Positions 5,898 to 42,496 of a stretch of DNA of 64,000 nt are shown here, in pieces. Under the pieces are notes generated by a model. It saw only the letters and a program-made list of their open reading frames with translations. It was not told where the DNA came from and made no database searches. Position 1 is the first letter of the stretch. Each line of letters starts with the position of its first letter. The position numbers were made by a program, and so were the translations under genes. This DNA is from Bacillota bacterium (GTDB lineage Bacteria > Bacillota > Sulfobacillia > Fermentithermobacillales > Fermentithermobacillaceae), in contig JBMNKK010000003.1 in NCBI GenBank assembly GCA_050952125.1, positions 7,952 through 71,951 of the forward strand, in the 5' to 3' direction.

Positions 5898-6184
5898 ATT
5901 GGGCGCGTGTCCCATTTCTGAAACTCGCACCTTCCCGCACAGAGACCGTTGCTGTATGATGAAAGGTGTCGAATCAGCGCAGGTACGGCTGGAAGAACGG
6001 ATGGTGACCCCAAATTAAAGCGGAATCGGACAGGCTATGGGCCAGGCAGGCGCTTGAACTCGCATCAAAAGCCCTGCACAGAGATATTGGAGTTCTGGAC
6101 CCATCTTTTGATCTCATTTTTGGGACAGGCGCCTTTTCGCCCGACTCCGATACTTCGAAATGGCGTCGTGAGTGCCGGGAAGCA

Positions 6185-7726
6185 GTGAAGAGACATGCGG
6201 GAAAGGCGCGCTTTTCGTCTGAGATCTCGTTTGGTTCGGGCGGGAAGGTGGCGGTTGACCTCCTGGTTCAGCCCGGAGGCTCCATCGTGGTACTGGGGCC
6301 CGCTCCAGATGACGAACAGCACTCGAACGGCAACATGGCGACTATTCTGAGTCTGCTTGGAGAGGCCATCCTCAGACTCAGCACTGAAAATGAGCGCATC
6401 TCCTCCTTTGACGGTCCGGCGGTGATTCTGGAGAAGTCGCTGGACGAGATAGGGGCGGGGTTCATCTTCATAGACCAGGCGGGTCAAGTTCTGGCGAGGA
6501 GCCAGTGGCTTTCCAGCGCCATGCCCGAAGGCAAGACTCTGTACGATATGTTGGATCCAAAGAGCTTGTCGAAACTAGATTTCACTCGCATTTCACGCGC
6601 GACGATTCCCATCTCTCTCAATGGGAACCCGCAGCTCTGCGACGTATCTCTGCTCCCGTTTTCGCTTGCCGGCTCCAGGATCAAGTGGGTCGCGCTCATT
6701 AGGAGGCACGGAGTCCCTGCATCCGCACAGCCGGCCAGCACCGCAGCGACCGGCGCAGATGAGCCGGCACTGGTTGGCAGTTCCCAGGTGGCCCAACGGA
6801 TGAAAACTGAGCTCACCAAGGCGGCCTCAATCGACAGCACAGTATTGCTAACCGGGGAAACGGGGACGGGGAAGAGCCTTGCGGCTCGTTGGATCCACGC
6901 CCGGGGTGCCCGCCGAACAGGACCGTTTGTGGCTGTAAACTGCAGCGCACTCCCTCCGTCACTTATCGAGAGCGAGCTTTTCGGCTACGAAGAGGGGGCC
7001 TTCACGGGTGCAAAGCGAGGCGGGAAACCCGGCAAATTCGAGCTCGCCAACAAAGGGACCATCCTGCTCGATGAAGTAGGCGATCTCCCTTTGGAGATGC
7101 AAGGCAAGCTCTTGCAGGTTCTCGACCTGGGTGAGATCGATAGGATAGGCGGGCGCGAGCCCAAGAAGGTAAATGCCCGGGTTATTGCCGCCACCAACAA
7201 AGACCTATCCGCACAGGTAAAGGCCGGCGCTTTTCGAGCCGACCTCTTCTTCCGCCTTGGCGTCATCTCAATAGAGATACCGGCTCTGCGCGACCGGCTC
7301 GAAGACCTGCCCGACTTGGTGGCGCATTTCATCGAACACCTTGGACAAAAGACGGGAAGAACGGCCCTTAGCATATCGGATGAAGCCCTTGCCCTTCTCC
7401 AGGGATATTCTTGGCCCGGCAACATAAGGGAACTGGCCAATGCGGTGGAGTACGCAATGGTGTTCTGCGAATCTGACACAATAGAGCCTGAACACTTACC
7501 GCTCAGAGTGTCTGCTAACAATGCAATTGAGACAAGGCCCGTCTACAGCCTGGAAGAAGCCGAGCGCAGGGAGATCGCCAAATGTGTCGCCAGCTTTGGC
7601 CTTTCCGAGGAAGGTAAACGCAAGATAGCGGAGGCTCTAGGCGTATCCAGGAGCACAGTCTACAGGAAGCTCAATAAGTACGGGTTTACCGCTGCCCCCA
7701 AGGCGAGTAGGCGGTCTCATAATTGA
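6185..7726 (+). CDS. Sigma-54-dependent transcriptional activator (bacterial enhancer-binding protein): N-terminal sensory region of unknown type, central AAA+ domain, C-terminal Fis-type HTH.
   Basis: Walker A GETGTGKS, GAFTGA motif (EGAFTGA), ESELFG, and a C-terminal HTH (VSRSTVYRKL). The true start may be downstream (e.g. Met at about 6335), because the first 50 aa are atypical. Confidence 0.9.
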   Translation: MKRHAGKARFSSEISFGSGGKVAVDLLVQPGGSIVVLGPAPDDEQHSNGNMATILSLLGEAILRLSTENERISSFDGPAVILEKSLDEIGAGFIFIDQAGQVLARSQWLSSAMPEGKTLYDMLDPKSLSKLDFTRISRATIPISLNGNPQLCDVSLLPFSLAGSRIKWVALIRRHGVPASAQPASTAATGADEPALVGSSQVAQRMKTELTKAASIDSTVLLTGETGTGKSLAARWIHARGARRTGPFVAVNCSALPPSLIESELFGYEEGAFTGAKRGGKPGKFELANKGTILLDEVGDLPLEMQGKLLQVLDLGEIDRIGGREPKKVNARVIAATNKDLSAQVKAGAFRADLFFRLGVISIEIPALRDRLEDLPDLVAHFIEHLGQKTGRTALSISDEALALLQGYSWPGNIRELANAVEYAMVFCESDTIEPEHLPLRVSANNAIETRPVYSLEEAERREIAKCVASFGLSEEGKRKIAEALGVSRSTVYRKLNKYGFTAAPKASRRSHN

Positions 7727-9430: not shown

Positions 9431-10615
9431 ATGGGGGAAGAGGAATTGGCGGCCACACGGTTTTTAGGATATGCAAGACCAGACGGGTCGATAGGTGTCA
9501 GGAACTCGACCGCAGTCATGTCCGCGGTTATGTGTGCCAACGAGGTAACCGAGGACATTGCCAAAGGTATTGATGGAGCCATCGCTGTTGTCCACGGCCA
9601 TGGATGTTGCCAGCTGCCTCCCGACCTGGCACTTGTCCAGCGGACGCTCATAAACATCGGCAAGAACCCCAACATCGCCAACGTCATTTTGGTGTCTTTG
9701 GGCTGCGAGGGCGTAGACCCGGACGCCGTCGCCCAAGAACTCACCGCCGCTGGCAAGGCTGTGGAGGTGATTAGGATCCAGGAGGAAGGCGGCACTCTTC
9801 CTGCCACCGAGAGAGGGCGCCGCGTCTGCGAGAAGTGGAGGTCTCTGGCATCTAAAGTAGAGCGTGCCAGCTTTGACGCCACCGAACTCACGATAGGTAT
9901 CAAGTGTGGTTCGTCAGATACCACCTCAGGCCTAATCTGCAATCCATCCGTCGGCAGGCTGACGGACCGGTTCGTCGCCGAAGGCGGGACAGTGATCTTC
10001 GGCGAAACCACTGAGTTTATCGGAGCCGAGCACCTTTTGGCGCAGCGGGGATGCACGCCCGAAGTGAAGGCTGCGATACCAAAGATCGTCGCCGAGATGG
10101 AAGAGCGTTGCCTCACCATGAAGGTGGACATGCGTACAGGGCAGCCCACTCCGGGAAACATCAGGGGTGGCCTCACCACGATTGAGGAGAAGTCGCTGGG
10201 CGCGATATCGAAGTCGGGAACCGGCAAGATAAAAGGCGTCCTCGAGTACGGCGAACGCCCACAGTCTAAAGGCCTATTCATCATGGACAGCCCGGGAAGG
10301 GAACCTGAACTGCTCACCGGACTTGCGGCATCGGGCTGCTCCATAGTGCTCTTCACAACGGGGCGGGGTGCTCTGCAGGGTCATCCCGTCGTTCCTGTGA
10401 TCAAGATCACGGGCAACGAGCGCACCGCCCAACACCTCGCCAGTCACATGGATGTGGATGTCAGCGCGGCCCTGACAAGACACGCATCCCTGGACGAAAT
10501 GGCTGATCTCATATGGAGCAAGATCGTGGATGTTGCTTCGGGTACCCTCACCAAGGCCGAGATTCACGGTTGCGGACGATTCATGAACATCTATGTGAAA
10601 GGTCCCATTATCTAA
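9431..10615 (+). CDS. UxaA family hydrolase, large subunit, paralogue 2 (tandem duplicate of the previous gene).
   Basis: FLGYARPDGSIGVRN start, and GCEG, GIKCGSSD and TTIEEKSLGA blocks co-linear with paralogue 1. 394 aa. Confidence 0.8.
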   Translation: MGEEELAATRFLGYARPDGSIGVRNSTAVMSAVMCANEVTEDIAKGIDGAIAVVHGHGCCQLPPDLALVQRTLINIGKNPNIANVILVSLGCEGVDPDAVAQELTAAGKAVEVIRIQEEGGTLPATERGRRVCEKWRSLASKVERASFDATELTIGIKCGSSDTTSGLICNPSVGRLTDRFVAEGGTVIFGETTEFIGAEHLLAQRGCTPEVKAAIPKIVAEMEERCLTMKVDMRTGQPTPGNIRGGLTTIEEKSLGAISKSGTGKIKGVLEYGERPQSKGLFIMDSPGREPELLTGLAASGCSIVLFTTGRGALQGHPVVPVIKITGNERTAQHLASHMDVDVSAALTRHASLDEMADLIWSKIVDVASGTLTKAEIHGCGRFMNIYVKGPII

Positions 10616-11647: not shown

Positions 11648-12904
11648 ATGACGGGTGTGGCTCTACCGCGGCTCTTTCCTATACGGCAGAGGTTTGTCAA
11701 CAGGGCGCTGCCTGATGTGTCTAAGGCGACAGAAGAGGCTTTCCTGCGATCCCACGTGCTCGATGCACTCTTGCCCGGACAGTCGGTAGCGGTATGCGTG
11801 GGGAGCAGGGGAATCTCAAATCTAGCTGAGATAGTGAAGAAGACCGTCGACCTGGTCCGTGCCAGAGGAGCCACCCCCTTCATCGTACCCGCCATGGGCA
11901 GCCATGGCGGGGGCAACGCAGAAGGGCAGACGCATCTCCTCGATCACTACGGGATTTCCGAGGCGAGCATGGGATGCGCTGTAAAGGCCGATATGTCAAC
12001 CACAGAGGTCGGACGCAGTCCCGAAGGCATAAGAGCGTACGTATCTAACGAGGCTCTTAAGGCGGATCACATTATCGCAGTTAACCGAGTAAAACCGCAT
12101 ACCGAGTTCGAAGGCGCGATTGAGAGCGGCATTCTGAAGATGCTCTGCATTGGCCTGGGTAAGTTGGACGGTGCCCAGCATTACCACAGCATCGGGATGA
12201 GGCTTGGCTTCGAGCACACGTTGCGTACCGGAGGCAGGTTGGTGCTGGACAATGCACCGGTCCTGTGCGGGCTAGCTATTGTTGAGGACTCATACGATCA
12301 GACCGCCATCATCGAGGCGCTCCGTCCTGATGGCCTGGAAGCAAGAGAAGAAGAGTTGTTGAAACTAGCGAAAAGTTGGGTTCCTAAGCTGCCCTTTGAC
12401 GAGGCTGATGTCCTTATCGTGAACCAGATGGGCAAGGACGTCTCGGGGACCGGAATGGACACCAAGACCGTTGGGCGTATCATGAGCGTCTACGCGAAGG
12501 AGCCAAAGTCGCCCCGCATCACCAGAATAGCTGTTCTAGACGCAAGTGAAGGGAACGATGGAAACCTTCTCGGGATAGGGCTTGCGGATTTCACGACGGA
12601 AAGGCTCGTCTCCAAGATGGATCCCGCGAAGGTGCACCTGAATGCCACAGCGGCACTCACCCCGGAAAAGGCCCGCGTGCCAATGTGGTTTTCATCTGAT
12701 ATTGAGCTGTTCAAGACGTGTTTTGCCACGATAGCGCCTCTTGATCCTCTCGACCAGAAGGTGATGCGGATCCAGGATACCCGCCACCTTGAGGTAGTCT
12801 GGGTATCCGAAGCTTACCTTCCTGAGGTTAAGGGCAGACCGGATCTAGAGATAGCGGGTCCGGCCGAAGAAATGCGTTTTGACAATAACGGTCGTCTTAT
12901 CTGA
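11648..12904 (+). CDS. LarA-like / DUF2088 (lactate-racemase N-terminal-like) domain protein, inserted between tctC and tctB.
   Basis: About 420 aa with a layout reminiscent of LarA (AMGSHGG in place of the ATGTHR block, GLGKLDG...HYH). It lacks the D-x-T-R-P block of true LarA, so the functional call is tentative. Confidence 0.45.
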   Translation: MTGVALPRLFPIRQRFVNRALPDVSKATEEAFLRSHVLDALLPGQSVAVCVGSRGISNLAEIVKKTVDLVRARGATPFIVPAMGSHGGGNAEGQTHLLDHYGISEASMGCAVKADMSTTEVGRSPEGIRAYVSNEALKADHIIAVNRVKPHTEFEGAIESGILKMLCIGLGKLDGAQHYHSIGMRLGFEHTLRTGGRLVLDNAPVLCGLAIVEDSYDQTAIIEALRPDGLEAREEELLKLAKSWVPKLPFDEADVLIVNQMGKDVSGTGMDTKTVGRIMSVYAKEPKSPRITRIAVLDASEGNDGNLLGIGLADFTTERLVSKMDPAKVHLNATAALTPEKARVPMWFSSDIELFKTCFATIAPLDPLDQKVMRIQDTRHLEVVWVSEAYLPEVKGRPDLEIAGPAEEMRFDNNGRLI

Positions 12905-13396: not shown

Positions 13397-14899
13397 GTGG
13401 ACGTCTTAAGTCTACTGCTAAAGGGCTTCAGTGTCGCCTTAACCCCGCAGAACCTGCTTCTTTGCGCCGGCGGAGTTATCATGGGCACTCTCGTGGGAGC
13501 CCTTCCCGGAATCGGACCCACCGGCGCTGTGGCAATGCTGCTCCCGGCGACGTTCAAGATGCACCCAGCAGGCGCCCTGATCATGCTTGCCGGTATCTAC
13601 TACGGGACTCAGTACGGTGGAACGATCACATCGGTTCTGATGGGCGTGCCTGGAGAATCTGCGTCAGTCGTAACCGCGATGGACGGTTATCAGATGGCCA
13701 AGAAAGGGCGCGCGGGAGCCGCGCTGGGAATAGCCGCCATCGGTTCGTTTGTTGGCGGAACCCTAAGCGTATTGGGGCTAATGCTCGTCGGCCCCAAGCT
13801 CGCTTCGTTTGCCCTCATGTTCGGCCCTACCCAGTACTTTGCCTTAATGATGATGGCGTTCTCACTCGTCACGGCCTTCACGGGTAAGTCCACAACGAGA
13901 GGACTAATCTCGCTGGCCGTCGGAATCTTCCTATCGTTGGTGGGCCAGGATGTGATGACCGGGGCCGAGCGGTTCACCTTCGGACAGGTCGCGCTGATCG
14001 ATGGAATCAAGTTCCTTCCCGTCGGCGTCGGCATGTTCGGCTTGGCAGAGATACTTGAGGGGTTCGAGGAAGAGGAATCCTCTGACATGATTGAGGCCGA
14101 CCTGCACTGGAGGAAAGTGCTTCCCAGTAAGGCTGAGATGAAAGAGTGCGCGGGGCCGATTGCTCGCGGCACGCTCATAGGCTTCCTCTCGGGACTTCTC
14201 CCCGGTGTTGGAGCGACTATCTGCTCGTTCCTGTCGTACGGAGTTGAGCAGAGGATCTCGAAGAAACCGGAGGAGTTCGGAAAGGGTTCCCCGGCTGGGG
14301 TTGCGGCTCCTGAGACCGCCAACAACGCGTGCACCGGAGCGGCTTTTGTCCCGATGTTGAGCTTGGGTATTCCTGCGGGTGCGACTTCGGCCGTCCTTCT
14401 GGGAGCTCTCATCATGTTTGGCCTGCAGCCCGGGCCGCTTCTGTTCCAGCAGTCGCCTGACGTGGTCTGGGGCCTTATTGCCAGTATGTACATTGGCAAC
14501 GTGATGCTCGCTGTGATCAACGTGGCTTGTATCCCTGCTTTTGTGTGGATAATGGATAAGATCAAGAGTTACCTGTCCATCGTCGTACTGCTGCTGGCGA
14601 CGTTCGGCGTATACAGCTATCAGAACTCTATCGCCGACGTGTTCATAATGATCGTATTCGCGGTTGTCGGGTACCTGATGGGCAAGGTTGGAATCCCGAA
14701 GGCGCCTCTGGTCTTGGGCCTGCTGTTGGGCGGCATGGCTGAGTCAAGCCTCAGGCAAGCGCTTACGATCTCCCACGGTAGCCTTTCAATCTTCTTCGAG
14801 AGCCCCATAACCATGACTTTCCTCGCTCTCGCAGTCCTATCTTTGGGGGCGGGCCGGCTCACAAGGGGCGGAGGCAAGAAGAAGAAGGCCGAAGCGTAG
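13397..14899 (+). CDS. tctA: Tripartite tricarboxylate transporter permease TctA.
   Basis: 500 aa and polytopic; the duplicated TctA-family motif GVLPGIGPT / GLLPGVGAT is present. Confidence 0.9.
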   Translation: MDVLSLLLKGFSVALTPQNLLLCAGGVIMGTLVGALPGIGPTGAVAMLLPATFKMHPAGALIMLAGIYYGTQYGGTITSVLMGVPGESASVVTAMDGYQMAKKGRAGAALGIAAIGSFVGGTLSVLGLMLVGPKLASFALMFGPTQYFALMMMAFSLVTAFTGKSTTRGLISLAVGIFLSLVGQDVMTGAERFTFGQVALIDGIKFLPVGVGMFGLAEILEGFEEEESSDMIEADLHWRKVLPSKAEMKECAGPIARGTLIGFLSGLLPGVGATICSFLSYGVEQRISKKPEEFGKGSPAGVAAPETANNACTGAAFVPMLSLGIPAGATSAVLLGALIMFGLQPGPLLFQQSPDVVWGLIASMYIGNVMLAVINVACIPAFVWIMDKIKSYLSIVVLLLATFGVYSYQNSIADVFIMIVFAVVGYLMGKVGIPKAPLVLGLLLGGMAESSLRQALTISHGSLSIFFESPITMTFLALAVLSLGAGRLTRGGGKKKKAEA

Positions 14900-14911
14900 G
14901 GAGACTTGATG

Positions 14912-14936
14912 CGGAGCAGGGATATCCCTGCTCCGT
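14912..14936 (+). terminator. Possible weak terminator hairpin after tctA (CGGAGCAGG-gatat-CCTGCTCCG).
   Basis: 9-10 bp stem seen in sequence. The U-tract is poor, so this may be only an attenuating hairpin. Confidence 0.3.
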
Positions 14937-14973
14937 CAAAATCTGTAGGACTTTTCGTTCTGGGGGGCCACAC

Positions 14974-16239
14974 TTGCCAGTCAAAGCAATAGCCGCAACA
15001 ACATTTCTTGTTGCCTACGTACTCCTAATCCAGCACAAGGTGCGGCCACCTCTGGTGGTATGGAGCGGAGCAGCTCTGCTTCTTGCCCTCGGAGTGGTCA
15101 CGCCTCTCTCGGCTTTACAGAGCATCAACCTTAACGTCATTGGAATTGTCCTTGGAACCATGGTCCTTTCGGACCTGTTCATCCACTCCGGAGTCCCGGC
15201 GTATCTCGCGTCGGTGATGGTAACCCGGTCGGCCTCGGTCGGACAAGCCCTCCTGGCGGTGTGTATCCTGTCAGGCGTTGTTTCGGCTGCAGTTGACAAC
15301 GTGGCAACCGTGCTCATGATCGCTCCCATTGCTCTGGAGGTATCGCGTCAGCTCTGTGTTTCGCCCGTTCAGTTCCTTATAGGGATATCCGTATCGGCCA
15401 ACCTTCAGGGCGCAGGAACCATGATCGGGGACTCAACCTCCATACTGCTCGCCTCTGAAGCAGATATGACCTTCATGGACTTCTTCTGGATGGACGGCCG
15501 TCCAGGCATATTCTTCTCAGTCCAGCTGGCCGCTGTGGCAGCCTTTGTAGTTCTTCACCTGTTCTTCAGGAAGCATAAGGGGGCGTGCAGCCCGGTCCCA
15601 TGCCCGAGCGTCTCATCTTGGGTGCCTACTGTGCTCATGGTGGCCACGATGGTAACGATGGCGCTGTCGAGCTTCATTCCCGGGAGGCCCGACTGGACCG
15701 TGGGCGGCATCGCTATAGCCTATGGATTGGCGGGCCTTATCTGGAACTCGGCCGCGAAATACAAGGAAGGGAACCTGCTCAAGGACGTCGATTGGGAGAC
15801 AATCTTGCTGCTGGGCGGCCTGTTCGTCCTGATCGGGAGCCTCACGACCACCGGCCTTATCGACGACATCGCGAATCTCATCTCAACCTGGACCAGCGGC
15901 AAGGCTTTTCTAGCCTACAACATCATCGTGTGGATGTCGGTACTGCTCTCGGCGTTCGTGGACAATATCCCGTACACCATGGCTATGCTTCCTGTTGCCA
16001 AGATTCTGTCGGTAAGCATAGGGGCGTCTCCCAATCTGATGATGTTCGGACTCCTGCTCGGAACAACCCTAGGAGGGAACATCACACCCATCGGCGCGTC
16101 GGCCAACGTGGTCGCTGTATCTCTCCTTCGCAAGAACGGGCACGAGGTGTCATTCCCTGATTTCGCCCGCATTGGCTTGCCCTTTACTATCGCGGCAGTT
16201 GTGACCGGGTCTTTGCTCAACTGGGTTCTGTGGAGTTAA
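14974..16239 (+). CDS. ArsB/NhaD-superfamily (CitMHS-type) anion permease.
   Basis: 421 aa, about 12 TM, with duplicated family motifs (AAVDNVAT...; AFVDNIPYTMAM). Confidence 0.75.
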   Translation: MPVKAIAATTFLVAYVLLIQHKVRPPLVVWSGAALLLALGVVTPLSALQSINLNVIGIVLGTMVLSDLFIHSGVPAYLASVMVTRSASVGQALLAVCILSGVVSAAVDNVATVLMIAPIALEVSRQLCVSPVQFLIGISVSANLQGAGTMIGDSTSILLASEADMTFMDFFWMDGRPGIFFSVQLAAVAAFVVLHLFFRKHKGACSPVPCPSVSSWVPTVLMVATMVTMALSSFIPGRPDWTVGGIAIAYGLAGLIWNSAAKYKEGNLLKDVDWETILLLGGLFVLIGSLTTTGLIDDIANLISTWTSGKAFLAYNIIVWMSVLLSAFVDNIPYTMAMLPVAKILSVSIGASPNLMMFGLLLGTTLGGNITPIGASANVVAVSLLRKNGHEVSFPDFARIGLPFTIAAVVTGSLLNWVLWS

Positions 16240-17522
16240 TTGTCTAGGATTGGGACGATGTTCACGGCTTTGGGGAGGACGAGGATCCTGTTTGGCTTCT
16301 TCCTCTCCATCGCCATTCTTAGCGCCGATTCCAGGTCAGGTGCGCTTTCCAGCATCATTCTGGTGAGGAGTGCGGGGTCAAGCTCCCTGGTGACAATGAT
16401 TATCCTGCCCTTAGTGAGCGCCCTGGCGTAGTTGAAAGCTTTGTTGTTCCCGGCATTGAAGCCGGTCTCGGCAAACCGCTTCAGGATGTCTCTCGGGCTC
16501 TTGCCCTCGATCATCCAATCTTGGAATGTCTGGTTGCCGATGCCGTCAACGCACTCGGCGACGAGGATGAATGTGCAGTTGGAAGTTCCTAGGAGCTCGG
16601 CCACCGATAGGGCCTTTTGGGCCTGGTACAGGTCTCGGTCTCTGGGGTAACCGCCGGGGCTCGCGACAATGATGTCGGCGGGTTTGCCGATCTTGGTTTC
16701 GCTGACCTCGCGGCAGATGGCGACTCCCGCCGCGTGAGCCGCATCCAGCTCGCCGGCGACGAAAGCGATGTAGGCTTTACTAGGTGCCTGCACGGCGTTA
16801 ACGATGAACTTTACCGGAGCCAAGCGCGCCGCTTCGAGAGCGGTTTCGTGGAACGGGTTTCCTTCCATCCACCCCATGACGGGGTCATACGGGCGGATGG
16901 GGAAGGAGTGGTGCACGCGGAGGCATTCCAGGCCGGCGACGCCCGGCACGATGCTTTTCCGGCCGCCGCTGTACCCCGCAGACTGATGGGGAGCAATAAG
17001 GCCGGTGAGTATGCAGAACGTGCTCTCTGCTACCGCGCGGTTTATGCACACTGGGAGCCCGGACTTCGTCACTCCCAAAGTGACGAGAGAAGAAGTATCT
17101 CTGCAGTCGTGGGGCACCAAGCGGAACCTTTGGCAGTACTCGGAGCCAATGATCTGTTCCATCTCCGAGGCAGTCGGTTGGCGGTGACTGCCCGTGGCGA
17201 AGACGACGGTAACGTGGTCGTCGGGGACTCCGGCAGACTCAAGGCGCCGCACGAGTGCCTGCATAATCTCGATGTTGGGGCCCGGCCGGGTATGGTCATT
17301 TACAACTATAGATACCTTGTCTTTCGGAGAAACCAGGTTCTCCAGCCGGTCTGTACCTATGGGATTGTCCATGGCGTCCTCAAGAAGGTGAGGCGGAGGA
17401 GCCTTTGGGACATCCCGGCCATGATCGATTACGTCGACCGGAATGTCGTCTGGAACTTGAGCGGCCTCTTCAGATCTCCCGTAAGGGACGCGAATAGTAG
17501 GCATGGCGGGGCCCCCTTTCAA
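16236..17522 (-). CDS. larA: Nickel-pincer-nucleotide (NPN)-dependent 2-hydroxyacid racemase/epimerase, LarA family.
   Basis: All LarA hallmark blocks are present: D-H-T-R-P (NDHTRPGP), ATGSHR (His108 equivalent), PHDCRD, GGRK (NPN-tethering Lys) and RVHHSF. Confidence 0.85.
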   Translation of the reverse strand: MKGGPAMPTIRVPYGRSEEAAQVPDDIPVDVIDHGRDVPKAPPPHLLEDAMDNPIGTDRLENLVSPKDKVSIVVNDHTRPGPNIEIMQALVRRLESAGVPDDHVTVVFATGSHRQPTASEMEQIIGSEYCQRFRLVPHDCRDTSSLVTLGVTKSGLPVCINRAVAESTFCILTGLIAPHQSAGYSGGRKSIVPGVAGLECLRVHHSFPIRPYDPVMGWMEGNPFHETALEAARLAPVKFIVNAVQAPSKAYIAFVAGELDAAHAAGVAICREVSETKIGKPADIIVASPGGYPRDRDLYQAQKALSVAELLGTSNCTFILVAECVDGIGNQTFQDWMIEGKSPRDILKRFAETGFNAGNNKAFNYARALTKGRIIIVTRELDPALLTRMMLESAPDLESALRMAMERKKPNRILVLPKAVNIVPILDN

Positions 17523-17577
17523 CGTGATCGTAGCAACTACGGGCAGAAACGTATAATAGCGGGTTGTGATTGAACTG

Positions 17578-17592
17578 ATAAGATTCTGTTAT
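17578..17592. promoter_or_regulatory. LysR-type T-N11-A box with dyad symmetry (ATAAGA-ttc-TGTTAT) in the divergent larA/lysR intergenic region.
   Basis: Seen in sequence. The position between the divergent genes is classic for LTTR autoregulation/activation sites. Confidence 0.4.
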
Positions 17593-17599
17593 CGAGGCG

Positions 17600-18565
17600 G
17601 TGCAAGAGATGCAGCTACGAGACATCCAGTACGTTATAGCGGTGGCCGAGGCAAAGGGATTCTCTCGCGCAGCCGAGAGAATCCACATTAGTCAACCTGC
17701 TGTCAGCCAATCGATCCAGCGTCTCGAGGCCCGCTTGGGCGTCAAACTCTTTTACCGCGGGAGTAGCGGAGTATCCCTTACCCATGCGGGAGAGGTATTT
17801 GTCAAGCACGGAAAAGCCATAATCGCCGAGAGCGAGAGTCTCCTTCAGAGGATGGCGGAACTCAGGGAAGAGAGGGATCGTGAGCTCCGCGTGTCCGCCT
17901 CGCCGTTTTACCGGAAATGCTGGCTCGACAGAGTGCTGCCGGTGTTCTCTGAACGCCATCCCGATGTGCGCGTGAAAGTGGTCGAAGCGTTTTCGGATGA
18001 CCAGGAATCGATGCTGCAGAACGGCAAGGTTGACCTCATAGTCGTCCCTTACCTTCGCTCCATCCCGCGTGTGCACTTCCAGGAGCTGTTCTGGGATGAG
18101 ATAGCCCTCGCTGTCCCCGCCGAAAACCAGCTGAACCGCCTCCTGGAGCCGAAGAGGAAGTGTGGGCTTACTCCGGATGACCTGCGGCTGTTCTCCGGAG
18201 AAGATTTCGTCATGTACAAGGAAGGGCGCAGGATGCGCCAGAGGTCCATGGATCTCTGCCGGGAAGCCGGATTTGAGCCCAGAATTATCCTTGAAACCCA
18301 CAGCTGCGAGAGCATCAGTGAGGTCGTGCGAAGGGGTATGGGCATCGGGTTCTTGCCCATCTCCATACGGCTGCTCGGTCCGCCCGGCGAACAACCCGTA
18401 CTCTACCGGCTCCTAAGTTCGCTGGCCAAGAGATACGTGTCTATCGGGTATCTAGATGCCGGCCTCTCGAAGGCGGGCGAGCAGTTTGTGAGGACTGCCG
18501 CGGAGCTCTCCGAGACCTTTGGGGATGAGGCCGTTGCCTGGCCGGATAGCCCACAAGCGCCATAA
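17600..18565 (+). CDS. LysR family transcriptional regulator.
   Basis: N-terminal HTH (FSRAAERIHISQPAVSQSIQRLEARLGVKLF) plus a C-terminal substrate-binding domain. The start may be the Met at 17609. Confidence 0.9.
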   Translation: MQEMQLRDIQYVIAVAEAKGFSRAAERIHISQPAVSQSIQRLEARLGVKLFYRGSSGVSLTHAGEVFVKHGKAIIAESESLLQRMAELREERDRELRVSASPFYRKCWLDRVLPVFSERHPDVRVKVVEAFSDDQESMLQNGKVDLIVVPYLRSIPRVHFQELFWDEIALAVPAENQLNRLLEPKRKCGLTPDDLRLFSGEDFVMYKEGRRMRQRSMDLCREAGFEPRIILETHSCESISEVVRRGMGIGFLPISIRLLGPPGEQPVLYRLLSSLAKRYVSIGYLDAGLSKAGEQFVRTAAELSETFGDEAVAWPDSPQAP

Positions 18566-18633
18566 GCAAGTGTTATCCGCGTTTATACAGTACGGATATT
18601 TCACCCCGGAGGACGACAGGTGCTAGTCTTGGA

Positions 18634-20616
18634 TTGACGGAAATCGGAGGAACGGGGGATGTCTCTGTGGGTAAAGGCATAGCCGAGAAAATCCTGTCAA
18701 CTCACCTTGTGAGTGAAAGCTCGGACGGCAAAGACATAGTCCTTCACGTTGATAGCACACTGATCCACGATATGTCCGGTCCCCTTGCACTCATTGGCTT
18801 TGATGCTATGGGGATTGACGATATACAGGTCGATCTGCCGGTCGCATTCATCGATCACAACCTGGTTGGGATGGACTTCAGGAGCCCTGATGATCACCTG
18901 TTCGTGACCTCGGCAGCTAAGAAATACGGGATGATGCTCTCTTCGGCGGGGAACGGCGTCTGCCACAGCGTCTACTATCACCGCCTGGGCAGGCCGGGGA
19001 CGATCCTGGTTGGGGCGGATAGCCACAGCGCGACTGCCGGTGCCTTAGGCATGCTGGGGATCGGCCTCGGAGGCCTTGATGTCTCAGCGATCATGGGCGG
19101 CGAAGATCTCACGATCGCCAGGCCTCGCATAGTCAATGTCAACCTCACCGGCAGCCTTCGACCGGGTTCCTCCGCCAAAGACGTAGCCCTCGCCTTGCTG
19201 GGGCGCCTGGGAGTGAAGGGGTGCGTCGGGGCGATAGTGGAGTACACCGGCCCCGGCGTGAAGACGCTCTCTGTCCACGAGAGAGCCACCATAGCCAATA
19301 TGGGAGCGGAGATGGGCGCTACTACCTCAGTCTTCCCCTCGGACGATGTCGTGTACCGGTTCCTGAAGGCCCAGTCCCGAGAAGCGGATTTCGTCGAGAT
19401 CCTTCCCGAGCGCGACGCTGAATACAGCCGGACGCTCACGCTTGCCCTCGACTCCGTGAGGCCGATGGTGGCCGTTCCGCCCATGCCGGACCGGGCGGTT
19501 CCCGTCGATGAAGCAGGTGAGATTCCGGTCAATCAGGTTTACATCGGGAGCTGCGTGAACGGGTCCTACGTCGATATCGCGCGCGCGGCGCTAGTCCTGC
19601 ACGGCAGGCGTGTTCATCCTGACGTCACGCTCCTGGTTTCTCCGGGCAACCGGCAGGTGTTTCAGATGCTGTTGCGCGACGGTCACATCGCTACTTTGGT
19701 GGAGGCCGGAGCCCGTATCCTTGAGTGTGGGTGCGGTCCTTGCATTGGGCTCAGCCAGGCGCCGGCTTCCGGGAGCGTTACTGTGAGGACCACCAACAGG
19801 AACTATCCCGGGCGTTCCGGCACAAAGGATGCCGGCATCTACCTTACAGGCACCGAAACCGCGGCTGCGACGGCGGTGCTTGGATACTTGGCATCCGCGG
19901 ACAAGTTGATGGACGTGGCGCTGCTGGACACGGTTCGCGACCCAGAGGTCTACCCGGTTGACGACGCCCGGATCTATCGCTATGACCTGGAGCGGATTCC
20001 GACTCCGCTGCGTTGGGGCCCGAACCTCAAGCCCATGCCGTTGAAGGAGCTCCTCGAGACCGAGTGCTCGATGAGGGTGGTGCTTAAGGTTGGGGACGAT
20101 ACGACCACCGACGACATCCTTCCTCCGGGGCCTGAGGTGCTGGGCCTGCGTCCGAATATCCCCGAGCTTTCCAAGTACCTCTTCAGCCACATAGACCCGG
20201 GGTTTTACTCCAGGGCAAGGGAATACGGAAGCAGCGTTATCGTTGGCGGCGAGAACTACGGCCAGGGTTCCAGCCGCGAGCACGCGGCCATCGGCCCCAT
20301 GTATCTGGGCGTGAAGGCCGTGCTGGTGAAGTCTATCGCGAGGATCCACAGGAGCAACCTTATCAACTACGGCATAATGCCGCTCATCTTCGACGATCCG
20401 GGAGACTACGACCGGGTATCTCAAGGAGATCTGTTGGAGATGACGGACATCCCTCAGCAATTGGGACGCGACCAGGTAGTGATCCGCAACCGGACCACCG
20501 GGCGCGAGATAGTCGCCCGGGCTCACCTCTCGCCTAAGGAGCTGGAACTGGTCAAGGTGGGCGGATTGTTCCGCTACATCCGGAACAAACGGGAGGGGGC
20601 TGCCGGTAAGAGATGA
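18634..20616 (+). CDS. Aconitase-family hydratase (fused LeuC-like and LeuD-like domains, about 650 aa), paralogue 1. The likely true start is GTG 18667, by alignment with paralogue 2.
   Basis: Fe-S ligands (SHSATAG...; GSCVNGSY; ECGCGPCIG), a swivel-domain C-terminus and ENYGQGSSREHAA. Confidence 0.85.
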   Translation: MTEIGGTGDVSVGKGIAEKILSTHLVSESSDGKDIVLHVDSTLIHDMSGPLALIGFDAMGIDDIQVDLPVAFIDHNLVGMDFRSPDDHLFVTSAAKKYGMMLSSAGNGVCHSVYYHRLGRPGTILVGADSHSATAGALGMLGIGLGGLDVSAIMGGEDLTIARPRIVNVNLTGSLRPGSSAKDVALALLGRLGVKGCVGAIVEYTGPGVKTLSVHERATIANMGAEMGATTSVFPSDDVVYRFLKAQSREADFVEILPERDAEYSRTLTLALDSVRPMVAVPPMPDRAVPVDEAGEIPVNQVYIGSCVNGSYVDIARAALVLHGRRVHPDVTLLVSPGNRQVFQMLLRDGHIATLVEAGARILECGCGPCIGLSQAPASGSVTVRTTNRNYPGRSGTKDAGIYLTGTETAAATAVLGYLASADKLMDVALLDTVRDPEVYPVDDARIYRYDLERIPTPLRWGPNLKPMPLKELLETECSMRVVLKVGDDTTTDDILPPGPEVLGLRPNIPELSKYLFSHIDPGFYSRAREYGSSVIVGGENYGQGSSREHAAIGPMYLGVKAVLVKSIARIHRSNLINYGIMPLIFDDPGDYDRVSQGDLLEMTDIPQQLGRDQVVIRNRTTGREIVARAHLSPKELELVKVGGLFRYIRNKREGAAGKR

Positions 20617-22541
20617 ACCTGACGGAGAAGATCATCGCAGCCCATTTAGTTGACGGCTCGATGGAACCGGGTGCGGAGGTCGCGCTGAAGATAGATCAGA
20701 CGCTTACTCAAGACGCTCTCGGAACAGTGGCTTACCTGGCCTTTGAAACCATGGGCATCTCGCGCGTCAGGACGCGCCGCTCCGTGAGCTATATAGACCA
20801 CAACATGTTGTGTGTGGACAACAAGAACCCTGACGACCATGCCTACCTCCTCTCAGTCGCGAGGAAATACGGGATATACCTGTCCAGAGCCGGCAACGGC
20901 ATATGCCACTCTATCCACTGCGGCCGTTTTGCAGTCCCCGGCGAGACGCTGGCCGGGGGAGACAGCCATACTCCCTCATGCGGAGCGGTTGGGATGCTCG
21001 GTATCGGCGTTGGCGGGATGGATGTCGCTGCAGCAATGGCAGGGGAACCCCTGGTGATCCGCATGCCGGAGGTGGTGAACATCCGCCTGACCGGTGAGTT
21101 TCGGCCGGGGGTGAGCGCCAAGGACTTGGCGCTTACCATAGTCTCGACGCTTACGGTGAAGGGCGGCAACAACACTGTGCTGGAGTACAGCGGACCGGCA
21201 CTCCGGAACCTCTCAGTCCCGGAACGCTTTACAGTCGCGAATATGGGGGCCGAAACCGGCGCCACGAGTTCCATCTTCCCGGCAGATGAGCAAGTATATC
21301 GGTTCTTTCGGGCCCAGAATAGGGAGCACGACTATCGTCGCCTAGCCCCCGATGACGGCGCGTGTTATGGCCGTACGCTGGAGTTCGATTTGGCAGATAT
21401 TGAACCGGTCGTGGCCAGACCCTACCAGCCCGACAACGTGTGCCCGGTGAAGGATCTGGGGACTGTCAAGGTCGATCAAGTATTCATCGGGAGCTGCACT
21501 AACAGCTCCTATGCGGATCTCAAGACCGCGGCGGCTGTCCTGGACGGACACGTGGTTCCGGCGCACGTGAGCCTCGTGATTTCTCCAGGGACACTGCAAA
21601 ACTACCGGATGCTCGCGCGAGATGGGATACTTGACGTCTTCCTCCGCGCCGGGGCACGTATCCTTGAGTGCGGGTGCGGTCCGTGCGTGGGGATGGGGCA
21701 GGCCCCCATGACAGGCGGCGTGTCTGTGAGGACATCCAACCGTAACTTCAGAGGGCGCAGCGGCGCCGTCGATTCTCAGGTTTACCTGGCGAGTCCGGCT
21801 GTCGCGGCGGCCAGCGCTGTTGCGGGGTACATCTGCTCGGCAGATGCCGTAATAGACGTTTACAGGCTCGGCGGGATTCACGAGCCCGATGAGTATCCCG
21901 CGGACGACAACATGATCGTAGCTCCTGCTCCGGACGGGAGTTCTGTCGAGATAGTCCGCGGGCCAAACATCAAGCCTGTTCCGCTAGGTACTCCGATACC
22001 TGACACGCTATCGTGCAGCGTGGCCATCAAGGTTGGGGACAACGTATCAACCGATGAGATCGCTCCAACCGGCGCGGAGATCGGAGCCCTTAGGTCCAAC
22101 ATTCCCGCGTCCGCCAAGACGGTGTTCGCGAGGATCGATCCGAACTTCCATTCTAGGGCACTCTCGTACAAGAACAGCGTTATCGTCGCCGGAGAGAACT
22201 ACGGCCAAGGCTCAAGCCGGGAGCACGCGGCTCTGTTGCCGCAGTTTCTCGGAGTGAAGGTTGTCTTGGCGAAGTCCTTCTCGCGGATCCATCGGACCAA
22301 TCTCATAAACTGCGGGATACTCCCGCTGGTGTTTAAGTGTCCGGCAGACCTGGAGCATGTCGAACAGGGCGATCACCTGATAGTCCGCAGTGTTCTTGAG
22401 GGCATAGAGAGCGGATCGTTCCGCCTGGAAAATGCAACCCAGGGGAGAACCATCGACGCTGTGGGTGACTTCACTGCGAGAGAAAGAAGGCTCCTATTAG
22501 CAGGCGGCCTGCTGAATGCCATCAGGGGGAAGGCCGGCTGA
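20613..22541 (+). CDS. Aconitase-family hydratase (fused LeuC/LeuD-like), paralogue 2. Its start overlaps the stop of paralogue 1 (ATGA).
   Basis: Same architecture: GSCTNSSY, ECGCGPCVG and ENYGQGSSREHAA. Confidence 0.85.
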   Translation: MNLTEKIIAAHLVDGSMEPGAEVALKIDQTLTQDALGTVAYLAFETMGISRVRTRRSVSYIDHNMLCVDNKNPDDHAYLLSVARKYGIYLSRAGNGICHSIHCGRFAVPGETLAGGDSHTPSCGAVGMLGIGVGGMDVAAAMAGEPLVIRMPEVVNIRLTGEFRPGVSAKDLALTIVSTLTVKGGNNTVLEYSGPALRNLSVPERFTVANMGAETGATSSIFPADEQVYRFFRAQNREHDYRRLAPDDGACYGRTLEFDLADIEPVVARPYQPDNVCPVKDLGTVKVDQVFIGSCTNSSYADLKTAAAVLDGHVVPAHVSLVISPGTLQNYRMLARDGILDVFLRAGARILECGCGPCVGMGQAPMTGGVSVRTSNRNFRGRSGAVDSQVYLASPAVAAASAVAGYICSADAVIDVYRLGGIHEPDEYPADDNMIVAPAPDGSSVEIVRGPNIKPVPLGTPIPDTLSCSVAIKVGDNVSTDEIAPTGAEIGALRSNIPASAKTVFARIDPNFHSRALSYKNSVIVAGENYGQGSSREHAALLPQFLGVKVVLAKSFSRIHRTNLINCGILPLVFKCPADLEHVEQGDHLIVRSVLEGIESGSFRLENATQGRTIDAVGDFTARERRLLLAGGLLNAIRGKAG

Positions 22542-22580
22542 GGGGTGGGTTTAGCTGAAGGGTGGGGCGCTGACGCCCGG

Positions 22581-22624
22581 GCCGGGGGATGCCACCGCGG
22601 AGTGGTGAGCCGGGGGATGCCACC
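22581..22624. repeat. Direct repeat GCCGGGGGATGCCACC x2 (spacing 28 bp).
   Basis: Seen in sequence. Confidence 0.7.
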
Positions 22625-22649
22625 TTGATGCGGCGGTTTGGGCGCGGTA

Positions 22650-22755
22650 ACCAAGTGCCCAGCGTATCCGGCCAAACTTGCGGTGGATGTCCCGGATTTG
22701 TGTACGTGGCGACCAAGTGACCAGCATATCCGCCCAAACTGTCGTGGATGTCCCC
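22650..22755. repeat. Two copies of a roughly 44-bp unit (ACCAAGTGMCCAGCRTATCCGSCCAAACTKKCGTGGATGTCCC) separated by 18 bp.
   Basis: Seen in sequence. Confidence 0.7.
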
Positions 22756-23046
22756 ACCGGTGCATAGATCAGGGCAGGACATCCCCGCTGGTGCATATTT
22801 CCCGGGGAACCTTTCCGTCGGTGCATATTTCCCGCGAAACATCCCCACGGGCGCACACGTCCCAGCGAAACATCCCCACGGGTGCATACGTCCCGCAAAA
22901 CGCCCTCATGGGTGCAGACGCCGCGTGGATATACCCGCGAGTGCGCACGCCGCGTGGCCACCCTCGCCGGTGAACGGGCCGTGCGAATACCCCTCCGGCG
23001 CACAAAGCCCGCGGAACACTCCCACTGGCGGGCTTGCGATATCCGA
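22750..23046. repeat. About 10 contiguous degenerate copies of a roughly 30-bp unit (core ...CCCC-N3-GGTGCAYAYGTCCCGCGAA...). No spacers, so not CRISPR-like.
   Basis: Seen in sequence. The period is 29-31 bp with a conserved GTGCA core; the overlapping six-frame ORFs here show protein-level periodicity and are artefacts of the repeat. Confidence 0.7.
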
Positions 23047-23150
23047 TGTACAAAGGTGAGTGGGGAAGGGGCGCGCAGAGCGGAGTTCAGGGGAGAGAGA
23101 AGTGTAACCTATGCTGGGCAGTCAACCCGTGTTTGAGCTGTTTGAGTGGC

Positions 23151-23249
23151 GCGTCACTGCCTGCCAACCGGTGTTTTGGTGAGGCGCCACTGTCTGCCAA
23201 CCGGCGTTTCGGTGATGTGCCACTGTCTGCCAACCGGTGTTTGGGTCAC
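23151..23249. repeat. Three tandem 33-bp direct repeats (GYGYCACTGYCTGCCAACCGGYGTTTBGGTSAN) located 115-215 bp upstream of the XRE-family gene.
   Basis: Seen in sequence. Each unit contains the near-palindrome CCAACCGGTGTTTGG. Confidence 0.75.
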
Positions 23250-23364
23250 GCGCATGTTCTTTTCAACTGATGCTCGGGCTGGCCGCAACCGGAAGTTGCT
23301 AGGATGCCGGAAAGGCTTGTGCTAGTTTCGGAGAGAAATCACCCGGCATTAGGAGGTTACTCAC

Positions 23365-24243
23365 ATGATTAATATGGAGAGAACTGGGGCGAGGATCTCG
23401 GGGCTTCGTAAGGCTCGTGGCATGACTCAAGCCGAGTTGGCGGCTAGACTGATGGTGTCTCCTCAGGCTGTCTCCAAGTGGGAGACCGGGCAGTCGCTTC
23501 CCGATTCAGGGCAGCTTCTTGCGATATCTGAGTTATTCGGAGTGACCATCAACAGCATTCTGACGGGCGAGGTGCAGGTTGGAGAGCCCGTTCAAGCTCC
23601 AGCCCCAACCACTCCTCCGCGTTCCGATGCACCTTCCGATTCATCTTTCAATCCATCTTCCGATTCATCCTCCCCTGGAGATGAGGAGAGGACTGATGAG
23701 TCGGCCTCTGAATCCTCAACGCTCCGGACGATCATCGGCTTGGCGCCCTTCATTGATAGTGACACCCTCGGACAGCTGCTCGAGGACTGCGATTGGAGCG
23801 GCGCTACCGTCGGCCACCTGGAATCGGTGGCTGCGTTCCTATCCAGCGATGTGGTCGATCGGCTGCTGGATCGAGTACCTCATCCGTCTGCGTCCGAAGT
23901 CTTCAAATTGGCGCCCTTCCTTGGGGCGTCCAAGCTTTCGTCGCTGGTGGAGGGTATGGAAGAGGAGATCACGCTGGAGCAGCTACGGCGAGTTGCCGCA
24001 TTCCTTGTTCCTGAAGTGTGTTCGCGTCTATTCGAGAGACTACTGAATGAGCCCGGCGATCACAGTTTTGAGGCGTTGGCATCCTTCGCACCCTTCATTA
24101 CCACTGAAGCATTGGAGGCCTTGATTCGCGCCTTCCCGCCGCCCAACCTTGAGGCTCTTAGGAGAGTGGCTCCCTTTCTTGATGAAGAGGAAGTCGGTCG
24201 CTTGCTTCGCGGGCTGCTGAAGCGGGATACGGATAGAAGATAG
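23365..24243 (+). CDS. XRE-family (Cro/C1-type HTH) DNA-binding protein with a low-complexity Pro/Ser linker and six C-terminal tandem repeats of about 27 aa (consensus L-R-R-V-A-P/A-F-L-x7-L-L).
   Basis: N-terminal HTH_3 motif (LRKARGMTQAELAARLMVSPQAVSKWETGQSLP). Internal repeats seen directly (LAPFIDSD..., VAAFLSSD..., LAPFLGAS..., VAAFLVPE..., APFITTE..., VAPFLDEE...). Confidence 0.7.
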   Translation: MINMERTGARISGLRKARGMTQAELAARLMVSPQAVSKWETGQSLPDSGQLLAISELFGVTINSILTGEVQVGEPVQAPAPTTPPRSDAPSDSSFNPSSDSSSPGDEERTDESASESSTLRTIIGLAPFIDSDTLGQLLEDCDWSGATVGHLESVAAFLSSDVVDRLLDRVPHPSASEVFKLAPFLGASKLSSLVEGMEEEITLEQLRRVAAFLVPEVCSRLFERLLNEPGDHSFEALASFAPFITTEALEALIRAFPPPNLEALRRVAPFLDEEEVGRLLRGLLKRDTDRR

Positions 24244-28759: not shown

Positions 28760-29147
28760 GACAGACTATCAGTTCGAGTTTTTCCGACAGTTACGTCTAT
28801 TGTCTCCGGCGGGCAATGTGCTATGCTTGTCTTGGTCAGTGACTGACTTACAAACTCCGAATCTGCAGGTCCTAAGGCGACAGGCTATGGACTGCAGGCG
28901 GTAGGGTTATGTTGGAAACGACATGATCTCCCATTGTGGAAAGGAGTAACATAGGCTTCGATACAGAACACGCTCAGTAGGACGAGCTGTCTGTCCATTT
29001 GCGTTCCGCAAATCGGTGAGCAGGCAGGCAACCCTTGACCTCTACTGAGTTTGCTTTGATTTGCGCCTACACCGCCTTGAACTCCAATCCACATAGGAAC
29101 CGTGACGCTAGAGCCATGGAAGAACCAGATGTGGGGAGGAAGAACCG

Positions 29148-42315: not shown

Positions 42316-42496
42316 GTTGAACTGTGGCAGCGTGCTCTAGGCACGCCAACAATGAAGCAGAAGCCATCCGCTTCTCACCTTACGGCTCTTTGAGCCGGTA
42401 AGGTTCACAGATAGAGGTCTATCGCTTAATTTGGCGACTTCTGTGGGCGGGTGGTTCACCCGCCCTTTAATATTGCGGAGGGCAGAGAGGAGGTAG

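Follow-up and report, generated by a model that had tools for sequence, protein, structure and literature searches.

Two kinds of short tandem repeat come closest to the element described here. MIRUs, the interspersed repetitive units of mycobacteria, lie for the most part between genes and are believed to be transcribed as parts of operons (PMC3635867), and BrickBuilt of Porphyromonas gingivalis, a minisatellite carried on a MITE (miniature inverted-repeat transposable element), has a 23-nt tandem core without spacers, framed by a leader and a tail, and is present in 19 intergenic copies (PMC4596501). We analyzed a repeat-packed gap at positions 22542–23364 of a 64,000-nt stretch of a Bacillota genome (GenBank contig JBMNKK010000003.1; the whole stretch is hereafter the window), which separates an aconitase-family gene (20613–22541, +) from a gene encoding an XRE-family helix-turn-helix (HTH) regulator (23365–24243, +). 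This island appears to be a composite of two unrelated repeat systems and local duplication debris. Its left and middle part (about 22643–23050) carries an array of 30- and 31-nt units that, by all indications, belongs to a previously undescribed tandem-repeat family recurring between unrelated genes in an uncultured Bacillota lineage of biogas reactors, and its right part (about 23122–23364) looks like the control region of the XRE gene, with an operator that seems to have been multiplied. A preliminary description of this DNA had treated the gap as one regulatory or repeat object; that unity dissolves into an XRE control region and a dispersed 30-nt element, while the regulatory link holds for the right part.

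Several tandem-repeat families lie inside 22542–23364 and are absent from the remainder of the window. The crowding of repeats into this non-coding gap is real and far beyond chance by Tandem Repeats Finder, autocorrelation and shuffling. Autocorrelation is significant at lags 31, 61 and 91 in 22740–23050 (z of about 6), at lag 33 in 23120–23260 (z = 9) and at lag 62 in 22643–22770 (z = 8); a lack of significant periodicity, named beforehand as what would overturn the claim, is not what the sequence gives. Tandem Repeats Finder calls the 30/31-nt array at 22820–22920, and a repeat search of the window extends the 30–31-nt families over 22746–23038. A hidden Markov model (HMM) of the unit, derived from six copies, detects six clear units at 22750–22929 (E <= 6e-5) and four weak matches at 22932, 22960, 22991 and 23018 (E 0.45–8.3), with which the array reaches about 23046; the initial count of about ten units of roughly 30 bp therefore stands as six clear and four weak. 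For the unit patterns the shuffle expectation is 0–0.1, and there are zero further occurrences in the window. As features on the plus strand, we place the six clear units of the dispersed family at 22752–22933 (Tandem Repeats Finder, repeat search and nhmmer, E 1e-7 to 6e-5) and the four decayed units of the same array at 22934–23050 (weak nhmmer matches, with repeat-family copies at 22992 and 23008).

On the left, the array is preceded by what had been taken for a roughly 44-bp unit present twice. It is a 62-nt unit present twice (22643–22704 and 22705–22766, +; repeat search, lag 62), its copies sharing a 36-nt core at 83% identity and a 23-nt stretch at 78%. Each copy begins with a flank module of about 45 nt, ACCAAGTG.CCAGC.TATCCG.CCAAAC...GGATG, and continues into the first 30-nt-type unit, so that the 3' end of the 62-nt unit is already one copy of the 30-nt unit. 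Further left, the repeat search finds short G-rich local duplications at 22537–22624 (+), namely GCTGA(G/A)GGGTGGG twice at 17-nt spacing and the 16-mer GCCGGGGGATGCCACC twice at 28-nt spacing. The 16-mer forms an exact pair (22581 and 22609), as described, but on its own is only weakly above chance, since 2 of 100 shuffles likewise gave two matches. To the right of the array, a repeat-free unique spacer (23051–23121), with no periodicity in segment 23050–23140 and no match in the other loci, leads to the 33-nt units already recognized earlier, for which Tandem Repeats Finder gives 3.5 copies at 23139–23253 with a score of 146.

As far as can be told, the gap is non-coding. Gene callers place zero genes in it on 11 further contigs that carry the locus. 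Because 30- and 31-nt units alternate along the array, every reading frame across it is broken, and the 103-aa open reading frame (ORF) at 22748–23059 has no matches other than spurious ORFs of other arrays and low-complexity proteins that are unrelated; the earlier view that the ORFs here are repeat artefacts is upheld. Six-frame translations of three arrays, searched as one synthetic 890-aa query, gave no protein match. We therefore rejected a protein-coding repeat or pseudogene, given a period that is not kept as a multiple of three and the lack of true homologues. The window locus is found base for base in several metagenome samples (public sequencing-run assemblies and JGI metagenomes), and its 11 further copies differ by two single-nucleotide polymorphisms and one single-base deletion, with copy number unchanged. 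The array is thus not a hypervariable variable-number tandem repeat, a class defined by copy-number variation among strains.

The same unit family turns up at other loci. Its consensus reads CCCCAC.GG.GCA.A..T.CCGCG.AAC.T on the plus strand and ...TGC.CC.G.GGGGA..T on the minus strand. We scanned metagenome DNA, in samples without the window locus, for two adjacent unit cores and then applied the unit HMM. The scan returned 36 stretches, mostly collagen-like coding repeats or unrelated repeats, and yielded true arrays on L030/L044, which are mutually orthologous, and on L053. The window-array ORF, taken in a single frame and searched against 1.8 billion representative proteins, hit two spurious array-derived proteins, P0240 and P0241, which led to two more arrays, on contigs L062/L063 and L064/L065. 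Both proteins are listed in public collections as 'hypothetical proteins' and are translations of non-coding arrays, an annotation artefact that also offers a handle for finding further arrays. There are thus five independent array loci: the window array between the aconitase and XRE genes; the L030 array between genes for a DUF2703 and a DUF4932-like protein; the L053 array upstream of an SBP_bac_5 gene, at a distance of about 500 nt; the L062 array between divergent DegV and APH-kinase genes; and the L064 array between genes for an NMT1-type binding protein and a GT4 glycosyltransferase. Beyond the arrays by which the contigs were found, no 30-nt array occurs elsewhere in about 100 kb of related contigs.

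The array-bearing contigs share the tetranucleotide signature of the window (r = 0.89–0.95; an unrelated contig matched in GC content gives 0.26), and blastn aligns arrays with one another over 85 nt at 85% identity (E = 1.6e-15) and over 90 nt at 81% (E = 1.6e-8). The flank module is common to the window, which has two copies of it through the 62-nt repeat, and to L064 (6232–6276), with 30 of 40 positions identical and a score of 20 against a shuffled null of 10.3 +/- 1.7; it was not found in L030, L053 or L062. The flanking genes are unrelated among the loci and the orientation of the array relative to them varies, the strand codirectional with the downstream gene being the CCCCAC strand in two loci and the GGGGA strand in four. 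With the same unit family beside unrelated genes at four other loci, and with XRE orthologues that have no array (see below), the 30-nt array appears to have nothing specific to do with the neighboring XRE gene. We also dropped the idea that the array is a cis element of the gene downstream of it in L030. That gene encodes a widespread DUF4932-like protein and has the array 71 nt upstream on the same strand, in GGGGA orientation, but its orthologues (67–69% identity) lack an array and have hardly any intergenic space.

Pattern searches with the unit core also return sequences of other kinds. Tandem or palindromic repeats of 27–32 nt with the core CCCC-N3-GGYGCAYA occur on L050, L035/L046, L027, L042 and L020/L021/L028/L040, unrelated contigs that the search pattern itself had selected; the unit HMM finds no match in L050, L035/L046, L027, L042, L020, L028 or L040 and a marginal one in L021 (E = 1.2). 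In viral contigs L018, L019 and L047 the unit core CCCCACAGGTGCACA lies within collagen-like Gly-X-Y coding repeats (...GPTGAQG...), a source of false positives for DNA pattern searches, and the pattern scan of viral contigs gave only such coding repeats.

The right part of the island is tied to the XRE gene by a different body of evidence. Orthologues of the regulator (47–68% protein identity) are encoded on L011, L014 and L015/L016, behind entirely different upstream genes and short gaps of 150–250 nt that lack the 30-nt array. The last 120 nt or so before the start codon can nevertheless be aligned across five upstream regions, that of the window and those of four contigs, with one orthologue present on two of the contigs. 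The invariant columns read CAAC...GTTGCTAG...TGTG.TAG.TT.C and GGAGG, and the conserved elements are CAAC-N5-GTTG palindromes, GTTGCTAGG, TGTG-N-TAG-N-TTC and GGAGG. The palindrome sits about 77–88 nt upstream of the start codon in four orthologous loci. The window has one perfect CAAC-N5-GTTG, at 23286; the others lie at 9891 and 9913 in L011 (20.9 kb), at 1097 and 1151 in L014 and at 1406 in L015, and all of these perfect sites are confined to the regions upstream of the XRE orthologues. We designate the window site, CAACCGGAAGTTG (23286–23298, +), the primary operator. It is followed by a promoter-like block, GTTGCTAGG ... TGTG-C-TAGTTT (23295–23328, +), in which we read TGTG-N-TAG-N-TTC by eye as a probable extended -10 element, and by a ribosome-binding site, AGGAGG (23351–23356, +), that contains the conserved GGAGG. 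A conserved palindromic operator next to a promoter, upstream of orthologous genes, is the arrangement of an autoregulated XRE/Cro-CI operator region, and we consider this predicted XRE operator footprint well supported.

The 33-nt units, which we delimit at 23122–23253 (+), extend this arrangement. Each contains CAAC-N5-(G/T)TT(G/T/C), with sites at 23123 (CAACCCGTGTTTG), 23165 (CAACCGGTGTTTT), 23198 (CAACCGGCGTTTC) and 23231 (CAACCGGTGTTTG), the first and last of which have at most one mismatch to CAAC-N5-GTTG. In total, five well-formed operator-like sites stand 33–55 bp apart before the XRE gene, with a weak sixth at 23264. Since every 33-nt unit contains a near-copy of the operator, we conclude from the sequence comparison that a species-specific tandem duplication multiplied the XRE operator. 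A link between the repeats and the adjacent XRE gene, as first suggested, is thus sustained for the 33-nt units, whose motif is kept upstream of the orthologues, and not for the array of roughly 30-nt units, which is not specific to XRE. The protein (292 aa; Pfam HTH_3, E = 1.3e-16) is the presumed binder of CAAC-N5-GTTG. We propose that an XRE dimer binds the palindrome. One perfect site adjoins the promoter-like block, and the duplication adds four near-copies three helical turns apart, on which the protein could bind cooperatively along one face of the DNA and so regulate its own gene more tightly.

This layout recalls the tripartite OR and OL operators of lambda, which are controlled by Cro/CI-type regulators of the XRE family, in that several palindromic operators precede the regulator's own gene, one of them beside the promoter, their spacing would allow cooperative binding of dimers, and the motif is conserved upstream of orthologues. 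It differs in that the extra operators would stem from a recent species-specific 33-nt tandem duplication, that there is no divergent partner gene, that binding is predicted from sequence, and that the XRE protein has a long C-terminal repeat domain of no assigned function. The protein has its HTH at the N-terminus (residues 8–69), followed by a Pro/Ser-rich linker that derives in part from a 12-nt tandem repeat (23622–23673) and by a C-terminal part of about 170 residues made of six repeats of about 28 aa with the signature 'APF(L/I)....L..LL', which matches no Pfam family.

What maintains the 30/31-nt units can be judged from how they vary. Units are on average as alike between arrays (identity 0.567) as within them (0.575), the best match of most units is a unit in another array, and abutting units are 60–90% alike. 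Departures from the consensus are distributed very unevenly among the columns (chi2 = 152.6, df 31, p = 5e-18, over 21 independent units), leaving a near-invariant core of about 22 nt on the minus strand, A-N2-T-N-TGC-N-C-N2-G-N-GGGGA-N2-T, that is followed by 8–9 variable positions. Between the orthologous arrays of L030 and L044, 8.6% of sites differ, compared with 14% of third codon positions in the flanking genes. Together, the equal identity within and between arrays, the position-specific conservation and the low L030/L044 divergence suggest that a recognition motif has been maintained, rather than that the units arose by recent slippage or are decaying freely. The array would then be a phased row of recognition sites, one for about every three helical turns, for a single sequence-specific factor encoded elsewhere. 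Such a row could offer the factor many landing sites, either on the DNA or on GGGGA-strand RNA; that a factor binds the units is our inference, and it could act at either level. A phased binding array, which the preliminary description had suggested from the period of about three helical turns, accounts best for the pattern of conservation. Matches by eye to an ECF-sigma-type promoter (GAAAC-N17-CGTC), a sigma-54 promoter, a DnaA box, a LexA box and a RacA-type motif were dropped, as the best-conserved positions are misplaced or the spacing is wrong.

We give about even chances to the account as a whole, that is, an XRE control region with a multiplied operator joined to phased arrays of recognition sites for one factor. 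Several observations weigh against it. The L030/L044 rate comparison is based on 15 differences, no regulator gene lies consistently near the arrays at the five loci, and the conserved core has neither a palindromic structure nor half-sites in direct repeat. With five loci, no rule of orientation or position can be drawn, and they lie on separate contigs, which may come from more than one genome. On the XRE side, two of the four sites in the 33-nt units have two mismatches to the palindrome, a consensus scan of the window finds no canonical sigma-70 site in the control region, and the TTGCTA and TAGTTT hexamers are 21 nt apart, so that the promoter assignment is tentative. The lineage also carries many other unrelated intergenic tandem repeats, which leaves room for a purely mutational origin without function.

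That last point is the basis of the main rival to the phased-site reading. The arrays would be neutral minisatellite debris, produced by slippage or unequal recombination in intergenic DNA, and the 30-nt family a selfish or hitch-hiking, functionless sequence spread by an unspecified copying process. We regard this as possible but clearly the less probable of the two. The unrelated intergenic tandem repeats of related contigs speak for it, as does the L064 island, itself a mosaic of three families; so do the decay of units towards the array edge, the lack of a consistent neighbor gene or orientation, and the array-free orthologues of the gene downstream of the L030 array. It fits poorly with the position-specific conservation (p = 5e-18), with an identity between arrays that equals the identity within them, with a divergence of orthologous arrays below that of third codon positions, and with the stable copy number in the 11 further copies of the locus. 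Should the arrays be only neutral minisatellites, their interest would be limited to the bookkeeping of genome evolution.

Spread by transposition offers another source for the dispersed arrays. A non-autonomous element, mobile now or in the past and with a minisatellite inside it like BrickBuilt, would have inserted array and flank modules together, and the arrays at unrelated intergenic sites, the multi-unit stretches of 85–90 nt common to different loci, the flank module of about 45 nt shared by the window and L064, and the same general anatomy in BrickBuilt all lend themselves to it. We nevertheless consider this improbable. No terminal inverted repeats are found, the left flank scoring 9–12 against the reverse complement of the right flank, which is the null level; L030, L053 and L062 lack the flank module; unit order is not significantly collinear between arrays; and there is no transposase gene nearby and no match in plasmid or phage collections. 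A MITE with a leader, a tail and terminal inverted repeats is therefore not what we observe, the flank module being present in the window and L064 only. BrickBuilt and the present family do share a spacer-free tandem core, an intergenic setting, multiple copies, restriction to a lineage and flanking non-repeat modules (PMC4596501), and they differ in that here inverted-repeat ends are lacking, the flank module accompanies only two of the five loci, and the units are much more degenerate.

With MIRUs the family shares tandem arrays of a common unit at several intergenic loci beside unrelated genes, here five on contigs of the same signature, and some of its arrays (L030 and L064) probably lie inside operon transcripts. 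Unlike MIRUs, its units are shorter (30–31 nt) and within an array highly diverged (about 57% mean identity), and small ORFs coupled to flanking genes are not in evidence. Copy number does not change in the 11 further copies of the window locus, whereas MIRU loci vary, hence their use in typing. As a further difference, the loci here are linked by the signature of their contigs and may belong to more than one genome. MIRU-type interspersed minisatellites and the MITE-borne minisatellite of BrickBuilt are thus the closest known kinds (PMC3635867, PMC4596501), and stable copy number, diverged units with a sharply conserved core and the lack of inverted ends set this family apart from both.

A structured RNA had also been suggested, and the GGGGA strand does show an asymmetry in folding. 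Its consensus fold energy is -56.8 kcal/mol compared with -8.5 for the other strand, and its single-sequence z-scores are -1.7 and -2.2 compared with -0.2 and -0.8; A·C mismatches on one strand are G·U pairs on the other. The GGGGA strand also has 10–12 GGA triplets per array of about 190–300 nt, compared with 2–5 on the other strand, is codirectional with the downstream gene in four of the five loci, and in L064 shows, directly after the array, a terminator-like minus-strand hairpin (6257–6243). A non-coding RNA from this strand could form a row of short GGA-rich hairpins, acting as a multi-site decoy that titrates an RNA-binding regulator such as CsrA, in the manner of CsrB or RsmZ, or as a cis-acting platform that stabilizes or regulates the adjoining mRNA. 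Bacillota, in which the protein FliW is the only CsrA antagonist known so far, would then have their first family of sponge-type RNAs.

We think this decidedly improbable. The unit hairpin is 78% paired compared with 77% in column shuffles and so shows no covariation beyond column composition, and the island as a whole folds no better than shuffled sequence (z = 0.1 and 1.3 for the two strands); of the structured-RNA suggestion, only the strand asymmetry in fold energy remains. The GGA triplets are not preferentially unpaired (0.25–0.27, compared with 0.29–0.33 overall), so the loops or single-stranded stretches in which a sponge RNA would present them are not seen. The consensus scan of the window finds no promoter or terminator on that strand, the island has no Rfam match either at gathering thresholds or at E <= 10, and a tblastn probe finds no csrA in the window and the contigs examined. 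CsrB and CsrC contain 13–22 GGA motifs, and Bacillus CsrA is antagonized by the protein FliW rather than by a small RNA (PMC6546359). The array resembles CsrB and RsmZ in a GGA density of about one per 17–25 nt on one strand and in its potential for repeated short hairpins, but with most GGA predicted to be paired, no covariation, no promoter or terminator of its own in the window and no Rfam match, a CsrB-like sponge RNA is unlikely.

Other repeat classes fare worse. A unit of 30–31 nt with a period of 61–62 nt recalls a repeat plus spacer, and period-61/62 signals in the window and L062 could hint at a decayed or derived array of clustered regularly interspaced short palindromic repeats (CRISPR); the minus-strand core GCGCC.G.GGGGAT, which we take to resemble a type I-E repeat core, is a lead only. 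Yet the units abut without unique spacers and are 60–90% alike, the I-E stem CCCCGC/GCGGGG is absent, no Rfam CRISPR-DR family matches at E <= 10, the window has no other repeat-spacer array, and no cas domains were found among the scanned neighbors (the aconitase, LysR, XRE, TrmB-like, NicX and Aldedh genes). The initial judgment that this is not a CRISPR array is thereby strengthened, both of our tests for membership going against a reading that is now close to refuted and barely credible. Repetitive extragenic palindromic (REP) sequences or the bacterial interspersed mosaic elements (BIME) built from them were rejected as well: all units are direct repeats, the unit hairpin is no better than its column shuffles, and the island folds at shuffle level. 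Of the recurrence at hundreds of intergenic sites, which the preliminary description had named as the mark of a generic REP-type element, we see the dispersal but not the number: there are five loci, one in the 64-kb window and four on the contigs searched, and their units are direct repeats rather than REP palindromes.

Tandem direct repeats that each contain small palindromes (CACCGGTG, TTCCCGCGGAA) are also a property of sopC-type centromeres, and the L030 array, 71 nt upstream of a same-strand gene in GGGGA orientation, is placed as the RNA antitoxin array of a type III toxin-antitoxin system might be. We see only the slightest chance that the arrays are plasmid or phage iterons, centromere-like repeats or such antitoxin arrays. 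The neighbors have no rep, par or toxin domains (Pfam, NCBIfam, PADLOC), blastn finds no match in 72,556 plasmids or 50,697 phage records, the L030 gene is the widespread DUF4932-like gene whose orthologues lack the array, and on the GGGGA strand of the window the array is not followed by a gene. Iterons of the plasmid or phage kind can therefore be set aside, the arrays having neither adjacent rep or par genes nor a plasmid or phage context, and a ToxI-like type III antitoxin was rejected because the flanking genes have no ToxN/AbiQ-type endoribonuclease domain and the orientation to the downstream gene varies. Like F-plasmid sopC and plasmid iterons, the array is phased and made of head-to-tail direct repeats with a short motif in each, at which binding would have to be presumed here; unlike them, it lies in a chromosomal context beside metabolic genes, with no adjacent partition or replication gene and no similarity to plasmid or phage records.

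A second repeat-mosaic island, of about 700 nt and with a layout like that of the window, lies at 5923–6630 of L064. Its three families are G-rich 15/16-nt repeats (6100–6185), in the same relative position as the G-rich duplications of the window (22537–22624), the flank module with the 30/31-nt array (6232–6460), and a 14-nt unit present eight times (6523–6637). Other, unrelated tandem repeats of related contigs lie at 6363–6465 of L062 (25 nt, 4.1 copies, 96% identity, intergenic) and at 12606–12674 and 13502–13578 of L011. Together with the L064 island, these suggest a lineage that is prone to tandem duplication.

The genes around the window island are metabolic and regulatory. A tricarboxylate-type cluster precedes it (about 13600–22541, corresponding to 1–9177 of L001), with TctB/TctA, a CitMHS transporter, a LarA-like protein, LysR and two tandem aconitase-family genes, the second of which forms the left border of the island (642 aa; Pfam Aconitase and Aconitase_C) and encodes a protein identical to one named aconitate hydratase in a Bacillota metagenome-assembled genome. 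Downstream, the XRE gene is followed by genes for a TrmB/MarR-like regulator, a NicX-like protein and an aldehyde dehydrogenase. The window also contains a molybdenum/tungsten cofactor riboswitch (28843–28962, +; 64 bits against a gathering score of 36) upstream of periplasmic-binding-protein/FecCD ABC transporter genes called on L001, and a ribosomal protein L20 leader (42349–42477, +; 61 bits) between thrS (40299–42254) and the L20 gene (43354–43713), a leader in keeping with a Bacillota origin. Proteins encoded in the window have identical counterparts in an uncultured Bacillota metagenome-assembled genome, and the protein cluster of ThrRS contains a 'Candidatus Fermentithermobacillaceae' entry.

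For annotation, the practical lesson is that arrays of this kind yield long artefactual ORFs, two of which have already entered protein collections as 'proteins'. The XRE part offers a small, clean case of an operator multiplied by tandem duplication, a change that may alter autoregulatory cooperativity. If the 30/31-nt units are phased sites for one factor, the arrays would mark an unrecognized regulatory or chromosome-organizing system in an uncultured Bacillota lineage that is poorly known and has its relatives in Candidatus Fermentithermobacillaceae, and the conserved 22-nt core would be a direct bait for finding that factor.

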